Part shown: positions 26,324-64,000 of the stretch, one piece after another
Numbering within the stretch: position 1 is the first letter of the stretch
Layout of the letters: the number at the start of each line of letters is the position of its first letter
NCBI GenBank assembly: GCA_005893305.1
Contig: VBOZ01000029.1
Coordinates: 169,072 to 233,071 of the forward strand
DNA: 64,000 bases
Direction: 5' to 3'
Source of the DNA: Candidatus Eiseniibacteriota bacterium
Lineage (GTDB): Bacteria > Eisenbacteria > RBG-16-71-46 > SZUA-252
Program-made: the position numbers and the translations under genes
The notes under the pieces: generated by a model
What the model saw: the letters and a program-made list of their open reading frames with translations, nothing else
Databases searched by the model: none
What the model was told of the DNA's origin: nothing

Positions 26324-27445
26324 ATGTCGACCAAGGAGGGGACCCGCGCCATCCTCGCACTCGAGGACGGCACCTTCTTTGAAGGCAAAGGGTTCGGGAG
26401 AAGCGCTGAGACATTCGGTGAAGTGGTCTTCAACACGACCCTCTGCGGATACCAGGAAGTCCTCACCGATCCATCCTACCGCGGCCAAGTCGTCGTCATG
26501 ACCTACCCGCACATCGGGAATTACGGGGTCAACCGGGAGGACGTCGAGTCCCTCCACCCTCAGGTGGCCGGGTTCGTGGTCCGCGAGATCTCCACCCGGG
26601 CCTCCTCCTGGCGGGCGTCCGGGGAGCTCCACCGGTATTTAGACGAGGCGGGCGTCGTGGGGATCAGCGAAATCGACACGCGCGCCCTGACGCGGCACAT
26701 CCGGACTCGAGGCGCGATGCGGGGGGTGATTTCGACCACCACGCTCGATGCCGACGTATTGATCCGGCGCGCGCGCGAGGCGCCCTCCATGGTCGGGCTC
26801 GACTTGGTCCGCGAGGTGACGTGCGACGCGGCCCACGCGTTCGAGGACCCGGACGTCGCCGGGACGCGCGGGCGGTTCCGCGTGGTGGCGTACGACTTCG
26901 GGATGAAGCGAAATATCCTTCGCATGCTCGCCGCCTCGGGCTGCGACGTGGCCATCGTGCCGGCGACGACCTCCGCCGAGGACGCCATGGCCGGCGATCC
27001 CGACGGGATCTTCTTTTCGAACGGCCCGGGTGACCCGGAGCCGTGCACCTACGCGATTCGCGCGGCGCGCGACCTCATCGGCCGCCGCCCGATCTTCGGC
27101 ATCTGCCTCGGACACCAGATCCTCGGCCTGGCGTGCGGCGGGAAGACGTTCAAGCTCAAGTTCGGGCACCGAGGAGCCAATCATCCGGTCAAGAATCTGC
27201 GCACCGGCCAGGTCGAGATCACGGCCCAGAACCACGGCTTCGCCGTCGATCCGGCGCTCTTCTCGAAGTCGGAATACGAGCTGACCCACGTCAACCTGAA
27301 CGACGGTACGGTCGAGGGATTCCGCCACCGGGAGCTTCCCGTTTTTTCAGTCCAGTACCACCCCGAGGCGAGCCCGGGCCCGCACGACAGCCACTACCTG
27401 TTCCGCGAGTTCATGGAGGAGATGGCCGCGCGCCGCGTGGCCTGA
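26324..27445 (+). CDS. carA: Carbamoyl-phosphate synthase small (glutaminase) subunit
   Basis: Contains the class-I glutamine amidotransferase triad region GICLGHQ and H..F.VQYHPE. AAGGAG ribosome-binding site; MSTKEG start. Confidence 0.95.
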
Positions 27446-56299: not shown

Positions 56300-56374
56300 T
56301 GGTAGCGCTACGGGGAATCGAACCCCGGTTTGATGGCTGAGAACCATCCGTCCTAACCCCTAGACGATAGCGCC
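56300..56374 (-). tRNA. tRNA-Glu (anticodon CUC)
   Basis: Cloverleaf read by hand: acceptor GGCGCTA/TAGCGCT (G1-U72), D-arm TCGTCTAGGGGTTAGGAC as in tRNA-Glu, anticodon stem GATGG/CCATC with loop TTCTCAG, T-arm CGGGG-TTCGATT-CCCCG, encoded CCA. Confidence 0.85.
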
Positions 56375-56410
56375 ACGACGCCGGCTCTATGAAGTGGCAC
56401 GCGATGAGCT

Positions 56411-56485
56411 TGGCTGGGGGAAGAGGATTCGAACCCCTGTACCGTGGTCCAGAGCCACGTGTCCTACCACTGGACGATCCCCCAA
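56411..56485 (-). tRNA. tRNA-Gln (anticodon CUG)
   Basis: Acceptor TGGGGGA/TCCCCCA (U1-A72, as in bacterial tRNA-Gln), D-arm GTCC-AGTGGTAG-GGAC, anticodon stem CGTGG/CCACG with loop CTCTGGA, T-loop GGTTCGAATCC, encoded CCA. Confidence 0.85.
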
Positions 56486-59828: not shown

Positions 59829-61167
59829 GAGGCTGATCTGCCTTCTGGCGGTGACGCTGGCCGCGGAGCCGGCGCCGCCTCTCGTGGGCCGCGCCTTGGC
59901 TCAGTATCCCAGCCCCGTTCCGGCTCCTCCGCCCGAGGTCCCAAGCCCCGGCATCAGCCTGGCTCGACCGAGATTCTCCGCCGACGCGACGGTCCAGCCC
60001 GGCGAGACCGGTGAGCCCGAGGTCCGCATCGACTACCGCCTCGCGCGCAGCGAGCTCCTCTTCGAGCGCACTTCGTCCGGTTACCACGCTGCGTACGAGC
60101 TCCGGGCCATTTTCGTGAGCGAGAAGGGGAAGAGGGAGGTCGCGGGGGATGCCCACACCCGCGAGCTCCGGGTGGCGCGGTATACCGAGACCCAGGCGAT
60201 CGGAGACGACATCGCCGATCACATCCCATTCCGGGTGCCACCGGGCAAGTACCGGATCGAGGTCTACCTCACGGATCTGAACGCGGAGCGCACCTCCTCC
60301 ACGACGATTCCCCTCGAGGTGCCGGGGGTCGCCGCGGGACAGCTCTGGCTCACCGACCTCTACCTGGGTACCGTGGACTCCACGGGTAGCGCGGGGCAGC
60401 ATGCGGGTCTGATTCCGAATCCATCGCGCACCTTCGGAGACGAGCTTCCGCGCTTCGCGGCGGCAGGCGAGATCGTGGACAACCGGCCGGCCGGCGCCCC
60501 GGATTCCGCCTTTCAGCTGAGCTACAAGGTCCTGAACGAGCTTCAGGTCGCCGTGGCCCACGGCGACACTTCGATCGCGCGACGGGGCCCGCGCACTCCG
60601 TTTCTGATCCGCCCCGCCTTCGGCCCCTTGGAGGCGGCCTCGTATCGCGTCGTCGTCGAGCTCGTGAGCCCGCTCGTCACGATCAAGGGTCAGAAGAAGC
60701 CGAGCCCCATCCGCCGGGAGAAGGCGTTCACAGTCGTGCCCAGCTCGGCGAGCGCGGTGACCGATATCAAGACCTCCCTGGAGGTGGTGCGCTTGATCGC
60801 GACCGACGCGGAGTTGCGCGAGATGGACCGGCAGCGGACCCCGGAGGAGCGCCAGGCGTTCTGGGATGCCTTCTGGAAGAGCCGCGATCCGACCCCCGAG
60901 ACGCCCCGCAACGAGGCGCTGGAGGAGTTCTACAGGCGCGTGCGTTACGCGGATCAGCGCTTCGGCGTGGGGGGGCCAGGCTGGAAGACCGACATGGGCG
61001 CTACCTACATCCAGTACGGCCCGCCCGACGAGATCGTGCGGAACCCGTTCCGGTTCGACGGCCCGCCCGAGGAGATTTGGTACTACTATCAATCGCGGAG
61101 GGTCTTCACCTTCGTCGATCGGGACGGTTTTGGTCGCTATGAGCTTGACCGCGAACGCTCCCGATAG
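59800..61167 (+). CDS. GWxTD-domain protein (secreted)
   Basis: C-terminal GWKTDMGATYIQYGPPDEI...EIWYY matches the GWxTD signature. Signal peptide IKRLICLLAVTLAA. Start overlaps the upstream gene by about 29 nt. Confidence 0.7.
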   Translation: MHASSSSYIKRLICLLAVTLAAEPAPPLVGRALAQYPSPVPAPPPEVPSPGISLARPRFSADATVQPGETGEPEVRIDYRLARSELLFERTSSGYHAAYELRAIFVSEKGKREVAGDAHTRELRVARYTETQAIGDDIADHIPFRVPPGKYRIEVYLTDLNAERTSSTTIPLEVPGVAAGQLWLTDLYLGTVDSTGSAGQHAGLIPNPSRTFGDELPRFAAAGEIVDNRPAGAPDSAFQLSYKVLNELQVAVAHGDTSIARRGPRTPFLIRPAFGPLEAASYRVVVELVSPLVTIKGQKKPSPIRREKAFTVVPSSASAVTDIKTSLEVVRLIATDAELREMDRQRTPEERQAFWDAFWKSRDPTPETPRNEALEEFYRRVRYADQRFGVGGPGWKTDMGATYIQYGPPDEIVRNPFRFDGPPEEIWYYYQSRRVFTFVDRDGFGRYELDRERSR

Positions 61168-61633
61168 CGCCGGATCGGCACTCCAGAGCTGGGCCGAGTT
61201 CCTTGCCGCCCATCATCTTCGTGTCACCGAGCCGCGCCGGCTCATCGCCCAGGCGATCGCCCAGTCGCCGGGGCACTTCGACGCGGAGACGCTTCGGCTC
61301 CGGCTGAGGGGCCAGGGGCGGCGCCTCTCCCGCGCCACGATCTACCGGACTCTCGCCCTGCTCCAGAGCTGTGGGATCCTGAGAAGGGTGCAGCTCGTGG
61401 AGGGTACGCTCCACTACGAGCTCTCCCGTCCGAACGATCCGCACCATCATCTTGTCTGCCGGCGCTGCGGCTCCGTCCAGGAGGTCACCGACGCGTCGCT
61501 GACGCGAGCGGTCCGCGAAGCGGCTCGCAGGGCGGCCTTTGCGCCGGAGGAGTTTGTCCTACGCATTCGGGGCCTCTGCTCCCGATGCCGCGGATCGCGC
61601 GCCTCAGGGGGTCGACCTGAGCCATCAACATAA
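61139..61633 (+). CDS. Fur-family metalloregulator (Fur/Zur/PerR-type)
   Basis: Fur fold with DNA-binding helix RATIYRTL, metal-site His cluster HHHLVC, and two CxxC pairs (CRRCGSV ... CSRCRG). Confidence 0.8.
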   Translation: MSLTANAPDSAGSALQSWAEFLAAHHLRVTEPRRLIAQAIAQSPGHFDAETLRLRLRGQGRRLSRATIYRTLALLQSCGILRRVQLVEGTLHYELSRPNDPHHHLVCRRCGSVQEVTDASLTRAVREAARRAAFAPEEFVLRIRGLCSRCRGSRASGGRPEPST

Positions 61634-61678: not shown

Positions 61679-61708
61679 TTGACACACCCTGGGGGCGGTG
61701 CCTATGGT
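61679..61708 (+). promoter_or_regulatory. Putative sigma70-type promoter (TTGACA-N18-TATGGT) for the downstream porin-like gene
   Basis: Perfect -35 hexamer with a plausible -10; implies a ~230-nt leader. Confidence 0.4.
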
Positions 61709-61938
61709 CCCCCGAAAATTTAGAGCGACGCTGGGGCGCTGCAGCGAAATAGTTTGAGCGACTTGGTCTTGTGCGACCCAACCCAAATACCTAACCGAAA
61801 GGGGGTGGCGGCTAGGTCCTAACGAGCAGCAACTGCTCTCTCGGATCTCCCTGGGACGATATCCAACTTCACTGTGTGATCGGCCCGGGCGGTAGACCCT
61901 GGATGGTCTAGGGTCCTAAAACAAGGAGGCGAACTCAG

Positions 61939-63258
61939 ATGTTTCAGCGCAAGCTGATTGTCGTTTTGGTCGTGGCCCTCGTCGCTTTGACGGCGGGAGT
62001 GAGTCAGGCGTCGCTGTCGCGCGTGGAAGGCATGGGGCTCGGAACGCCTCAGCTCAGCCAGTTCACGGACGACTACGCGAACATCTACTACTACCCGACA
62101 TCGGTCGTCCGGCAGAACAACCTGGTGCTCGCAGAGCTCGGCAACAACCCGGGCGGCTTCGTGGACGCGGTTTCGCACATTGACCAGAGCCTCACGCTCA
62201 TCAGGAATTTCCCGCGCTTCGGCTCCATCGCATTCCAGATGAAGCAGAACGCGCTCAACTCCGCGTTCCCGGGCAACCTCAATAATGAGATTTTCGACGT
62301 GATCTGGGGAACCGGCCTGGCGAAGATGGACATCGCCGTTCGCGTCGATGTGACGAATTCTTCGTTCAACCAGGACTTGAGCGGCGGCCCGACGCACAAC
62401 GAGGCTCACGGCGACGGCTTCCTGCCGGGTGACCCGTATCCGTTCGGCGCCTTATTCGTCAACGATATCATTGTGGGCACGGGCGTCGAGCTCAACACGT
62501 GGGGCGTGGGCCCTGCGATCGCCCTGCATCTGGCGAATGACAACCGCATCGAGGGTACGGTTGATTTCCGTCGCTACACGCTCGACCGCAAGACCTCCAC
62601 GGCAGGCGTGGCCGGCGAGTCGTGGAAGGACGGAGGAAACATGTCCTACGCGGTTGCTGCCCGTGGAATCCTCCATCAGGGCGACCGGGCGACGTGGTAC
62701 CCGGCATTCTGGTACATCAACGACGACCTGAGCTATGAGGTCAGGAACAACCCGGCCACCGTCGGCCCGCGCTCTGCCGACGAGACGTACAAGCAGCTTG
62801 GGGCCGGGATCTCTCACAACATGAGAGTGAACGACAACAACCTCCTGATCTTCGGCGCGTCCGTGTCGCAGTCGAAGGCGACGTACGACCGGACGGACAA
62901 CAACGACGGCGTCGCGAACGGCAACCTCAAGCACCGCGAGTTCAAGACGACGCTCGCGCCGCGCTTCTTCGCCTCGCTCGAGACCGACCTCACCCGCTGG
63001 CTCAAGGGGCGCCTCGGCGCGTCGAAGTCCATGCAGTCGGAGAACACCGAGACGTCCGACTTCAACACGGTCCCGGTGACCTCGAAGCTCAAGGAGCGGT
63101 TCTCGGACTTCGCGTTCAGCCTCGGCACGGGCATCAAGTTCAACAATTTCGACGTCGACATGACCCTGAACCAGTCCTTCCCGCTGTCGGGCGGCTGGGT
63201 TCTTTCGGGCGATCCGGCGACGCCGTTCACCCGCGTCTCGGGGACGTACCACTTCTAG
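61939..63258 (+). CDS. Outer-membrane beta-barrel protein (porin-like)
   Basis: Signal peptide MFQRKLIVVLVVALVALTAGVSQA, amphipathic beta-strand pattern and C-terminal aromatic residue (YHF). AAGGAGG ribosome-binding site. Lower GC and different codon choice (ttt, att, aat common) than its neighbours. Confidence 0.7.
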   Translation: MFQRKLIVVLVVALVALTAGVSQASLSRVEGMGLGTPQLSQFTDDYANIYYYPTSVVRQNNLVLAELGNNPGGFVDAVSHIDQSLTLIRNFPRFGSIAFQMKQNALNSAFPGNLNNEIFDVIWGTGLAKMDIAVRVDVTNSSFNQDLSGGPTHNEAHGDGFLPGDPYPFGALFVNDIIVGTGVELNTWGVGPAIALHLANDNRIEGTVDFRRYTLDRKTSTAGVAGESWKDGGNMSYAVAARGILHQGDRATWYPAFWYINDDLSYEVRNNPATVGPRSADETYKQLGAGISHNMRVNDNNLLIFGASVSQSKATYDRTDNNDGVANGNLKHREFKTTLAPRFFASLETDLTRWLKGRLGASKSMQSENTETSDFNTVPVTSKLKERFSDFAFSLGTGIKFNNFDVDMTLNQSFPLSGGWVLSGDPATPFTRVSGTYHF

Positions 63259-63305
63259 AAGAAAGTCTGAATCAAGGGCCCGGCGACGGGTCCAAAAAAG
63301 CCTGG

Positions 63306-63342
63306 GGCCGCTCGGCGTCATCGCCGGGCGGCCTTACTTTTT
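63306..63342 (+). terminator. Rho-independent terminator for the porin-like gene
   Basis: GGCCGCTCGGCG-TCAT-CGCCGGGCGGCC forms a 12-bp stem with one G·U pair, followed by TTACTTTTT. Confidence 0.7.
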
Positions 63343-63355
63343 GCAACGAAAGTAG

Positions 63356-63384
63356 TTGACACGGTACGGGCCGGTTTCTAAGTT
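63356..63384 (+). promoter_or_regulatory. Putative sigma70-type promoter (TTGACA-N17-TAAGTT) for the TonB-dependent receptor gene
   Basis: Consensus -35 with a reasonable -10 at 17-nt spacing; about 260-nt leader to the ATG. Confidence 0.45.
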
Positions 63385-63644
63385 GGGTGGGAAGCAAATG
63401 GATGGCGGCTCCAAGCCGGAACGTGGCCGCGCTGAGTCAGTGGGGAAGGAAGGCAAGGGGGTAACCAAAGAAAAACGCCGGAACGAGTGGAGAACAGCCG
63501 ATAGAGGGACCCAATGGCGTGCTGGAATGGACCGGGGTCATCGCGGAGCCGGTCTTGGGGACTCATGGGACAAGGGAGAACATCACTCAAGGAATGAGTG
63601 ACCCTCGGATGGCGCTTCCACAGGAGTGCAGGGGAGGGAGAGTC

Positions 63645-64000
63645 ATGACGCGACCTCGGATGCGTCGGAGGCTGGGCGTCGTCACGTTCATCGTGGCGTG
63701 CGCCTTTTTTGTTTTTGGGAAATCGTGGGCGGGAACGACGGGCACGATCAGCGGCACCGTCACGGACTCCAAGACCGGCGAGCCGATCGGGCTTGCCACG
63801 GTCACGATTCCGGAGCTCAAGCGCGGGGCGACGAGCGACGCCCAGGGCCATTACTACGTCACCAATCTGCCGGCAGGTAAGTACTCCGTACGGGTCGCGC
63901 TCCTCGGCTACGTCCCGCAAGCGCGGGAGGGGATCGAGGTATTCCCCGACTTCACGACGAAGCTCGACATACCCATGGAGCCCACGGTTCTCAAGGACGT
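63645..64000 (+). CDS. TonB-dependent receptor, N-terminal part (signal peptide + carboxypeptidase-regulatory-like domain); continues beyond the window end
   Basis: GGGGAGGGAG ribosome-binding site. N-terminus MTRPRMRRRLGVVTFIVACAFFVFG...GTISGTVTDSKTGEPIGLATVTIPELKRGATSDAQGHYYVTNLPAGKYSVRV is the CarbopepD_reg-like extension of SusC/TonB-dependent receptors. Confidence 0.75.
   Translation, partial: MTRPRMRRRLGVVTFIVACAFFVFGKSWAGTTGTISGTVTDSKTGEPIGLATVTIPELKRGATSDAQGHYYVTNLPAGKYSVRVALLGYVPQAREGIEVFPDFTTKLDIPMEPTVLKD

Follow-up and report, generated by a model that had tools for sequence, protein, structure and literature searches.

A conserved, folded leader and a terminator-like hairpin in the signal-peptide codons of a TonB-dependent receptor gene of Candidatus Eisenbacteria: a candidate translation-coupled attenuator

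In Escherichia coli, the btuB leader, in which an adenosylcobalamin (AdoCbl) riboswitch acts on translation initiation, is ~240 nucleotides (nt) long, and its regulatory sequences extend into the coding region. Attenuation of pyrBI relies on a dedicated leader-peptide open reading frame (ORF), with UTP-sensitive pausing as the signal. The rpoS and shiA mRNAs have a long 5' leader with an inhibitory ribosome-binding-site hairpin that is opened for translation (by DsrA, RprA and ArcZ in the former, by RyhB in the latter), and the ompA leader, 133 nt with two hairpins and an open ribosome-binding site, is an mRNA stabiliser. Here we describe a control region at the start of a TonB-dependent receptor gene in a 64,000-nt stretch of DNA from a Candidatus Eiseniibacteriota bacterium (contig VBOZ01000029.1, positions 169,072 to 233,071), hereafter the window. 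The receptor ATG is at 63645-63647 and the window ends 355 nt into the gene; the rest of the receptor locus was read from five public contigs with DNA identical to the window. The whole unit spans 63356 to ~63716, from the promoter through an in-gene terminator, and the most informative parts of the control region lie within the receptor coding sequence. The segment 63385-63644, which a preliminary description of this DNA had singled out as a candidate riboswitch or small RNA (sRNA) region, is a real feature that covers only part of this unit.

The nearest counterpart of the locus in logic is the btuB leader. The two appear to have in common (PMC11162775, PMC5499598) a leader of a few hundred nt, a TonB-dependent receptor, a closed ribosome-binding site and coupled control at the mRNA level. 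Unlike btuB, however, the present leader has no B12 box or match to any cobalamin model, its helices are laid out differently, and at the mRNA level an intrinsic terminator encoded by signal-peptide codons seems to act in place of Rho or RNase. With pyrBI and pyrE-type attenuation it shares a terminator hairpin within a translated stretch, which a closely trailing ribosome would block; ribosomes that follow the polymerase closely are known to block the formation of intrinsic terminator hairpins (PMC5021804; PMC4824070), and translational riboswitches are known to act on transcription termination as well (PMC5499598). The difference from pyrBI is that the ORF is the structural gene itself, that the terminator begins 30 nt after the AUG, and that control seems to be exerted on initiation, by way of a structured leader and a closed ribosome-binding site. 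The long 5' leader and the ribosome-binding site in an inhibitory hairpin recall rpoS and shiA, but the inhibitory strand is in the coding region instead of upstream, an in-gene terminator is added, and no sRNA partner is known. Similarly, ompA is brought to mind by the long, folded leader ahead of a gene for an outer-membrane protein and by P0, a hairpin close to the start of this leader (Table 1); ompA has neither the Shine-Dalgarno (SD)-mimic and anti-SD boxes nor the in-gene terminator of the present locus.

We propose, with belief and doubt in about equal measure, that the module attenuates transcription in a translation-coupled manner, under the control of a structured leader. Three RNA parts would compose it: a multi-hairpin leader domain closed by a long-range helix, P1; a hairpin enclosing the SD sequence; and a terminator in the signal-peptide codons. 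With the ribosome-binding site closed, initiation would fail and the in-gene hairpin would form behind RNA polymerase, leaving an RNA of ~325 nt. With the site open, a ribosome trailing the polymerase would cover the 5' arm of the hairpin, giving full receptor mRNA together with the downstream genes. The choice would be made at translation initiation and amplified by termination, and the upstream P1 domain would be the likeliest site at which a signal is read or a small ligand, protein or sRNA docks, altering access to the ribosome-binding site. A search of the available families and literature found no description of a terminator-in-signal-peptide design with a sensor leader as a conserved natural module.

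The comparison comprised 22 distinct orthologous loci of Candidatus Eisenbacteria, with receptor identity from 94% down to ~60%. Between the promoter and the gene body, the receptor locus has a G+C-rich hairpin with an immediate U-tract, the signature of an intrinsic terminator, and this predicted hairpin is placed inside the translated ORF where a ribosome could mask it, as ribosome-coupled attenuation demands. The 12-bp stem occupies codons 11-20 and the U-tract codons 21-24. Its predicted energy is -18.3 kcal/mol in the window, and ~19 of the 22 orthologs have a hairpin of -17 to -26 kcal/mol with a U-run. Across 21 aligned sequences, 94.4% of the stem cells are paired, versus 30-55% in slid registers, and none of 500 shuffles reaches the pairing or the covariation score; three stem pairs are changed on both sides (CG/GC, CG/UA and GC/AU). 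The codons of the U-tract are rare ones: TTT accounts for 12% of Phe codons and GTT for 8% of those for Val. The peptide at the N-terminus is an ordinary signal peptide, conserved at the protein level, which implies that the start codon is not mis-called and that the hairpin is truly in translated sequence.

A hairpin plus U-run at the signal-peptide position was found in 24 of 25 leader-family loci, versus 2 of 139 other receptor loci and 5 of 632 in-gene control windows; the in-gene terminator co-occurs almost exclusively with the leader. By the same criteria there are only 6 such sites in the 64-kb window when both strands (128 kb) are read. The only others besides those of the receptor locus are at 26967-27020 and 27300-27353 on the plus strand and at 37612-37559 and 34281-34228 on the minus strand. 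Of 20 full transcripts, 19 have the terminator in their minimum-energy fold. A search of the orthologs for a conserved antiterminator that could compete with it found none; the best partners of the 5' arm are at inconsistent places (P0 in the window's clade, elsewhere in others), and an RNA antiterminator was rejected on this ground. This fits a ribosome or a factor, rather than an RNA switch, preventing the terminator.

The same element lends some support to the "sRNA region" of the preliminary description, in that a terminator-like hairpin with a U-tract 30-72 nt into the ORF would end a ~325-nt RNA. In an independent sRNA gene, the promoter at 63356 and the terminator at 63716 would give a stable RNA of this length that has its own function and simply overlaps the receptor gene start, and receptor mRNA would arise by read-through. 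Such a gene would be in keeping with the strong -35 element, the conservation of a terminator-like end and of internal structure, and the definite length, as well as with the default formation of the terminator in predicted folds and with the purine- and GGA-rich composition in the window's clade. However, the upstream gene ends in a strong terminator and leaves the receptor no other promoter, so that read-through must be substantial. Moreover, the 3' third of the RNA consists of the receptor's ribosome-binding site and signal peptide, this receptor alone is preceded by the module, and no target or partner is known. We therefore regard an independent sRNA gene as highly improbable.

The second part of the proposed attenuator is the initiation hairpin, in which the SD sequence is paired with a CCUC strand in codons 4-5 of the receptor; codons 3-5 read CGA CCT CGG, and inner pairs lengthen the stem. 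The hairpin appears in the window's own minimum-energy fold. Of the cells in 21 aligned sequences, 79.8% are paired, versus 26-49% in slid registers; one pair alternates between GC (9 sequences) and AU (8), and the covariation score is matched by 1 of 500 shuffles. Most orthologs retain CGA-CCT though both codons are rare in this genome (CGA, 12% of Arg codons; CCT, 8% of Pro codons), a constraint at synonymous sites. In thermodynamic ensembles, the unpaired probability of the SD sequence is ~0.2 in most folds. An RNA thermometer of the ROSE or fourU type was rejected, as the SD sequence pairs with CCUC plus G-C pairs and no fourU or ROSE match was obtained in Rfam.

These two hairpins also bear on the possibility of a passive 5' untranslated region (UTR), whose hairpins would stabilise an abundant mRNA, as in ompA, or fix the translation rate, with the in-gene hairpin slowing elongation or aiding targeting. 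In its favor, a P0 hairpin is near the 5' end in nearly all orthologs, a long conserved leader likewise precedes the adjacent outer-membrane gene, the fold energy of the full leader is unexceptional, and U-rich coding of hydrophobic signal peptides is common. Yet a 12-bp G+C-rich stem with a rare-codon U-tract is the signature of a terminator and not of a translation ramp, the rare codons upholding the SD hairpin point to repression that needs relief, and the boxes resembling SD and anti-SD sequences show conservation down to single nucleotides. A passive leader is thus very unlikely in our judgement.

The leader is conserved upstream of the orthologous receptors. In the 22 loci, the gene order is kept as a GWxTD protein, usually a Fur-family gene, a ~440-amino-acid (aa) outer-membrane protein, the spacer, the receptor, a ~990-aa protein and a PorV-like protein. 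Outer-membrane gene and receptor are separated by 268-407 nt, and this spacer aligns blockwise, with the conserved blocks in the following order: the upstream terminator; AAAAAGTG-TTGACA-N17/18-TAAnTT; the G+C-rich 5' hairpin; AGGRGGU; AGCCGG; GCCGA(U)-(A)GAGGG; the AGGGA-containing loop; GACCCUCGGAUGGCG; and the SD sequence. When a leader profile was searched against the 177 loci fetched, it matched only receptor orthologs of at least 60% identity, and receptor homologs at 45-50% have no such leader. A divergent member is L174 (3730-4110; 70% receptor identity), whose spacer is only 268 nt; it is without TTGACA, the CGA-CCT codons and the in-gene U-tract, retains GCCGAUAGAGGGACCC, and may be a decayed version of the control module.

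Rfam 15 (4227 models) was scanned over the whole window at the gathering score and over 63200-63760 at E<=10. The leader has no Rfam family at either threshold, nor was one obtained in 14 orthologous loci; weak matches (E 1.5-8) fell only on the upstream terminator hairpin or were compositional (H19_3, minus strand). A negative scan together with a leader not conserved before orthologous receptors would have spoken against the regulatory RNA proposed in the preliminary description. The scan was indeed negative, but the leader is conserved with structure-preserving changes, and it is therefore a genuine candidate cis-regulatory RNA: a conserved, folded RNA region absent from Rfam.

P1 (GCCG:UGGC plus GAGG(G):(C)CCUC) is the sole consensus helix proposed by RNAalifold on 20 full leaders. 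Once the variable middle is taken out of the alignment, 97% of cells are paired for GAGGG:CCCUC and 85% for GCCG:UGGC, versus 51% or less in the best slid register. Compensatory variants occur in L172 and L006, which carry AAGGG:CCCUU and GCCUU:AAGGC, and the 62% clade carries GCCAG:UUGGC. Folded singly, 14 of 18 orthologs have the minimum-energy fold of the domain closed by P1, and 16 of 18 have a domain stabler than dinucleotide shuffles (mean z = -1.6). For 15 of 22 full leaders, P1b can be forced at an ensemble-energy cost of no more than 1 kcal/mol, and a column-pair scan of the pruned alignment for further helices found only P1b prominent. The conserved multi-hairpin P1 domain is recovered by RNAalifold and by single-sequence folds, with some compensatory changes that amount to few events. 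Two motifs recur between the leader and the gene start, the leader CCCUCGGAUGG resembling the coding CCUCGGAUG and the leader GAGGG being the SD core, implying that P1b is a copy of the initiation helix. Two further repeats are GACC(C)TCGGATG, at 63600-63611 in the leader and again at 63652-63662 as receptor codons 3-6, and GGATGGCG, at 63400-63407 near the 5' end and again at 63607-63614 in the P1 3' strand.

Inside P1, single-sequence folds give two to four hairpins whose places are kept and whose stem sequences are clade-specific. One stem reads GACCGG/CCGGUC, AACCGG/CCGGUU, CGGAC/GUCCG or AGCCGAC/GUCGGCU depending on the clade, another GUGCCC/GGGCAC, GCGCCC/GGGCGC or CCUGC/GCAGG, and another CACUC/GAGUG, GCAC/GUGC or CGUC/GGCG. 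Because hairpin number and length vary, MAFFT with RNAalifold gave no consensus on the isolated P1 domain. The last interior hairpin shows an AGGGA(U/A) loop just before CCCUC in most orthologs, and AGGAA in the window. In the closest relative, L166 (94% receptor identity; 1860-1880), the loop reads AGCAAAU, with the GG lost and the stem intact; either the loop is dispensable or the L166 copy is impaired. A pseudoknot between the AGGGA loop and UUCC/AUCC, examined by eye, has 3-4 possible pairs but was rejected for want of consistent covariation, and it is broken in L166 and L011. The linker at 63557-63580 has the form GGGG-N6-GGG-N4-GGG; in L166, L168 and L170 at least four G-tracts with short loops make it G-quadruplex-like, and the 62% clade carries ordinary hairpins in its place.

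Outside P1, a hairpin at the P0 position is found in nearly all orthologs with differing stem sequences; in the 62% clade it has 7 pairs, and 3 of these differ in both partners. In the ortholog leaders, the SD-like block B is not followed by any conserved start codon or ORF. The AGCCGG of block C is nearly invariant, and the GUGGAG that follows it could pair with UUCCAC (63616-21). Since GUGGA and UCCAC are invariant in 12 sequences, this pairing gains neither support nor refutation; the helix is absent from the 62% clade, in which the GCCGG of block C can pair instead with UCGGY.

The architecture of the P1 domain brings to mind a classical metabolite riboswitch, in which this domain would be the aptamer and a ligand acting on P1 alone would set the ribosome-binding site and the terminator via alternative pairings. 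A multi-stem junction with a conserved P1, variable outer stems and conserved junction-proximal or loop nucleotides (the AGGGA loop and the GA before CCCUC) would agree with it, and so would the expression-platform-like hairpin and terminator downstream. The P1 3' strand also runs into CUUCC, which is able to pair with SD purines: RNAalifold pairs it with GGGAG in the window's clade, and in the column-pair scan a 3-bp UUC:GAG stack shows changes on both sides. Long leaders before TonB-dependent receptor genes are, furthermore, known riboswitch sites, as in btuB (PMC11162775). The idea of a known class, whether cobalamin, thiamine pyrophosphate (TPP) or other, is nonetheless not supported by the Rfam scans, which are negative even at E<=10. 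Cobalamin riboswitches (RF00174 and AdoCbl variants) were rejected, with no match at the gathering score, at E<=10, or in the 14 orthologs, consistent with the lack of a B12 box noted in the preliminary description. A new class would have to contend with the lack of a conserved antiterminator, with a closure of the ribosome-binding site that is independent of P1 in folds, and with a near-invariance of the P1 sequence that would be uncommon in the P1 stem of an aptamer. The motif also stands before one gene family in one lineage only, so that gene context gives no clue to a ligand, and the receptor belongs to a PorU/PorV-like cluster rather than to a vitamin or metal pathway. We consider a classical metabolite riboswitch unlikely.

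That sequence, and not only pairing, is kept in several boxes (AGGRGGU, AGCCGG, GAGGG, CCCUCGG and the AGGGA loop) would be in line with an operator for a trans-acting factor, i.e. an anti-antisense sRNA, as for rpoS and shiA, or an RNA-binding protein that opens or locks the initiation hairpin from these purine and pyrimidine boxes. The ribosome-binding site is closed by default in the folds, a Fur-family gene is adjacent in several loci, and the leader of the neighbouring outer-membrane gene has similar boxes (GAAAGGGGGUGG; GACCCUGGAUGG, cf. GACCCUCGGAUGG), which would suit a common regulator; the 62% clade, however, has not retained this common box, and there is no known sRNA candidate. As for a protein, the leader in the window resembles CsrA-bound leaders and the CsrB/RsmZ sponges in having 19 GGA in 260 nt and an AGGGAU/AAGGAA hairpin loop ~45 nt upstream of a GGA-containing SD sequence; the AGGGAU loop resembles the CsrA site CARGGAU. 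In contrast to CsrA leaders, neither the GGA enrichment nor the loop GGA is conserved across orthologs: the enrichment has z = 3.3 in the window versus -0.9 to 0.6 in many orthologs, the loop GGA is missing in L166 and L011, and the SD GGA is missing in L007 and L010. No CsrA gene was found in the DNA examined, which is uninformative as it comprises this locus only. Such an operator seems distinctly unlikely to us, and a CsrB-like sponge was rejected because the GGA enrichment is not conserved across orthologs.

Returning to the translation-coupled attenuator, a more specific and rather doubtful form of it, which we put forward tentatively, is that a new class of riboswitch in Candidatus Eisenbacteria has its sensor in the P1 domain (63496-63614), or that a new regulatory factor docks there. 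The domain would set the initiation of an Oar-like TonB-dependent channel encoded in a PorU/PorV-like cluster, and this setting would be converted to termination via the terminator in the signal-peptide codons. If the attenuator model is true, it would add a structured regulatory RNA from a metagenome-only candidate phylum whose gene control is almost uncharted, and a compact conversion of translational into transcriptional control by a signal-peptide terminator kept by rare codons. Programs that predict genes or terminators would overlook elements of this kind wherever they leave out coding sequence. It would also provide a testable handle on the regulation of an Oar-like TonB-dependent protein tied to PorU/PorV-like genes. 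A long leader before a TonB-dependent receptor, in any case, need not mean a B12 riboswitch.

Several points weigh against the attenuator. The SD sequence stays paired whether P1 is forced or forbidden, and a switch between P1 and the SD sequence was rejected because of this; as closure is independent of P1 in the folds, the action of the upstream domain on initiation is left without explanation. The window's own initiation hairpin is weaker than those of most orthologs (GGGAGAG instead of GGGCGAG), and in fold energy the full leader does not surpass its shuffles (z = +0.59 for the plus strand and -0.02 for the minus strand). The compensatory changes are few and follow clade borders, representing perhaps a handful of events, and the shuffle control ignores kinship. 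Several alignments were hand-anchored, since MAFFT alone fails on the variable domain. With the terminator so close to the AUG, a ribosome could hardly initiate in time without a pause of the polymerase or 30S subunits already bound. In a consensus scan, only part of the in-gene terminator is flagged in the window and none of it in two orthologs, because of the bulge in the stem, and the consensus promoter scan did not list TTGACA-N17-TAAGTT. The transcription start and the RNA 3' end at the U-tract are predictions from sequence.

The promoter call is backed by ortholog conservation and not by the consensus scan. The sequence and spacing given in the preliminary description are right, and the promoter stands about 255 nt ahead of the receptor ATG, but the -10 element matches TATAAT at only three of six positions; a TTGACA-like hexamer 244-308 nt before the ATG, with a -10 of the TAnnnT type, is present in 20 of the 22 orthologs. 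The predicted transcription start, near 63391-63393, would give a leader of ~253 nt before the receptor ATG. The 439-aa outer-membrane gene directly upstream of the spacer ends at 63258, and the terminator hairpin behind it has 15 pairs, 11 of them G-C, with a predicted energy of -28.6 kcal/mol; hairpin and T-run are kept in orthologs. As the upstream gene closes with its own terminator, the receptor is a separate transcription unit that needs its own promoter. The coordinates of these and the other elements are collected in Table 1.

Table 1. Elements of the receptor control region and the nearby Fur-family gene (window coordinates)
Feature	Position	Strand	Description
Fur-family regulator gene	61136-61633	+	Pfam FUR, 6e-26; two genes upstream of the receptor
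Intrinsic terminator of the 439-aa gene	63303-63345	+	15-bp hairpin 63303-63336, then CTTTTTGC
Predicted promoter	63356-63384	+	-35 TTGACA 63356-63361; 17-nt spacer; -10 TAAGTT 63379-63384
P0	63405-63430	+	G+C-rich 5' hairpin, GCGGCU 63405-10 : GGCCGC 63425-30; first GCCGGAACG in the loop
Block B	63456-63462	+	AGGGGGU (AGGAGGU in other orthologs), SD-like
Block C	63476-63492	+	(A/C)GCCGG (second GCCGGAACG), then GUGGAG 63487-92
P1 5' strand	63497-63508	+	GCCG 63497-63500, AUA, GAGGG 63504-08
P1 interior	63509-63601	+	Variable hairpin right after GAGGG; GACCGG 63530-35 : CCGGUC 63549-54
P1 interior, 3' part	63557-63601	+	G-tract linker 63557-63580; UCACUCA 63583-89 : UGAGUGA 63595-63601, loop AGGAA
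P1 3' strand	63602-63621	+	CCCUC 63602-06, GGA, UGGC 63610-13, then GCUUCCAC 63614-21
Initiation hairpin	63631-63659	+	SD sequence GGGGAGGG 63631-38; GAGG 63634-37 : CCUC 63654-57; AUG in the loop
In-ORF intrinsic-terminator-like element	63675-63716	+	Codons 11-24, signal-peptide region
In-gene hairpin arms	63675-63704	+	GGCGU-CGUCACG 63675-86, loop 63687-91, CGUGGCG 63692-98, bulged U, GCGCC 63700-04
In-gene U-tract	63705-63716	+	TTTTTTGTTTTT (also written UUUUUUGUUUUU), directly after the hairpin

The purine richness remarked on in the preliminary description is confirmed: 63385-63644, with a purine fraction of 0.669, ranks first among the window's 3187 overlapping 260-nt tiles (mean 0.499, standard deviation 0.036), and the leader shows strong GC and AT skew. 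The repeat of GCCGGAACG does occur twice, but at 63415-63423 and 63477-63485 and not at the positions first given. The motif is found 7 times in the window versus 2.9 expected. Only the second copy is kept in orthologs, as AGCCGG, the first being seen only in the window and L166, and a functional pair of repeats was rejected since one copy alone is conserved. That the leader has no ORF was literally wrong, as there is an 81-aa ORF at 63356-63601 (67 aa from the ATG at 63398). This ORF is absent even from the closest relative, the ORFs in the 22 leaders vary in frame, place and length, and none is shared; the leader is therefore effectively non-coding. A leader peptide or upstream ORF was likewise rejected, since neither the AUG at 63515 behind GAGGG nor the 67-81 aa ORF is conserved. 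Our literature search found no paper linking Eisenbacteria to riboswitches.

The receptor is a protein of 981 aa with an N-terminal CarboxypepD_reg domain, a Plug domain and a TonB-dependent barrel. Downstream are a 993-aa protein whose C-terminus is weakly similar to PorU and the type IX sorting domain and then a PorV/PorQ-family protein (161 bits versus a cutoff of 90); this region is at L001 14696-18784, beyond the window. Upstream are a GWxTD-domain protein, the Fur-family regulator, found in several of the orthologous loci and missing from others, and the 439-aa outer-membrane protein, weakly similar to the PopA porin. These neighbours suggest that the receptor belongs to a type IX-like sorting cluster rather than to a nutrient-uptake operon. 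The PorU-like and PorV/PorQ-family neighbours together with the CarboxypepD_reg domain make a context that is not that of a vitamin importer, and the prior expectation of such an importer is not supported. Genes near the L001 cluster also encode LVIVD/FlgD_ig and GWxTD-domain proteins.

A second conserved leader, of ~230 nt, precedes the 439-aa outer-membrane gene at 61679-61938 (plus strand), with TTGACA-N18-TATGGT at 61679-61708; it was negative in Rfam. Its blocks that are invariant across 19 loci are ACCGAAAGGGGGUGG, a GAGCAGnAACUGCUC hairpin, a CCYGGG...CCCGGG hairpin, a GACCCU-GGAUGGUCU-AGGGUC hairpin (GACCCC/GGGGUC in the 62% clade) and AAGGAGG. The themes GGGGGU and GACCCU(C)GGAUGG are common to both leaders in the window's clade only. 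The gene start itself, ATG TTT CAG CGC AAG CTG AT with codons 2-7 at 61943-61957 (plus strand), is nearly invariant in 18 loci and so gives no covariation information; a small hairpin, UCAGC-GCAA-GCUGA, directly follows the start codon. Elsewhere in the window, the sole Rfam matches are two adjacent tRNA genes at 56303-56484 on the minus strand, with tRNA scores of 58 and 60 bits.

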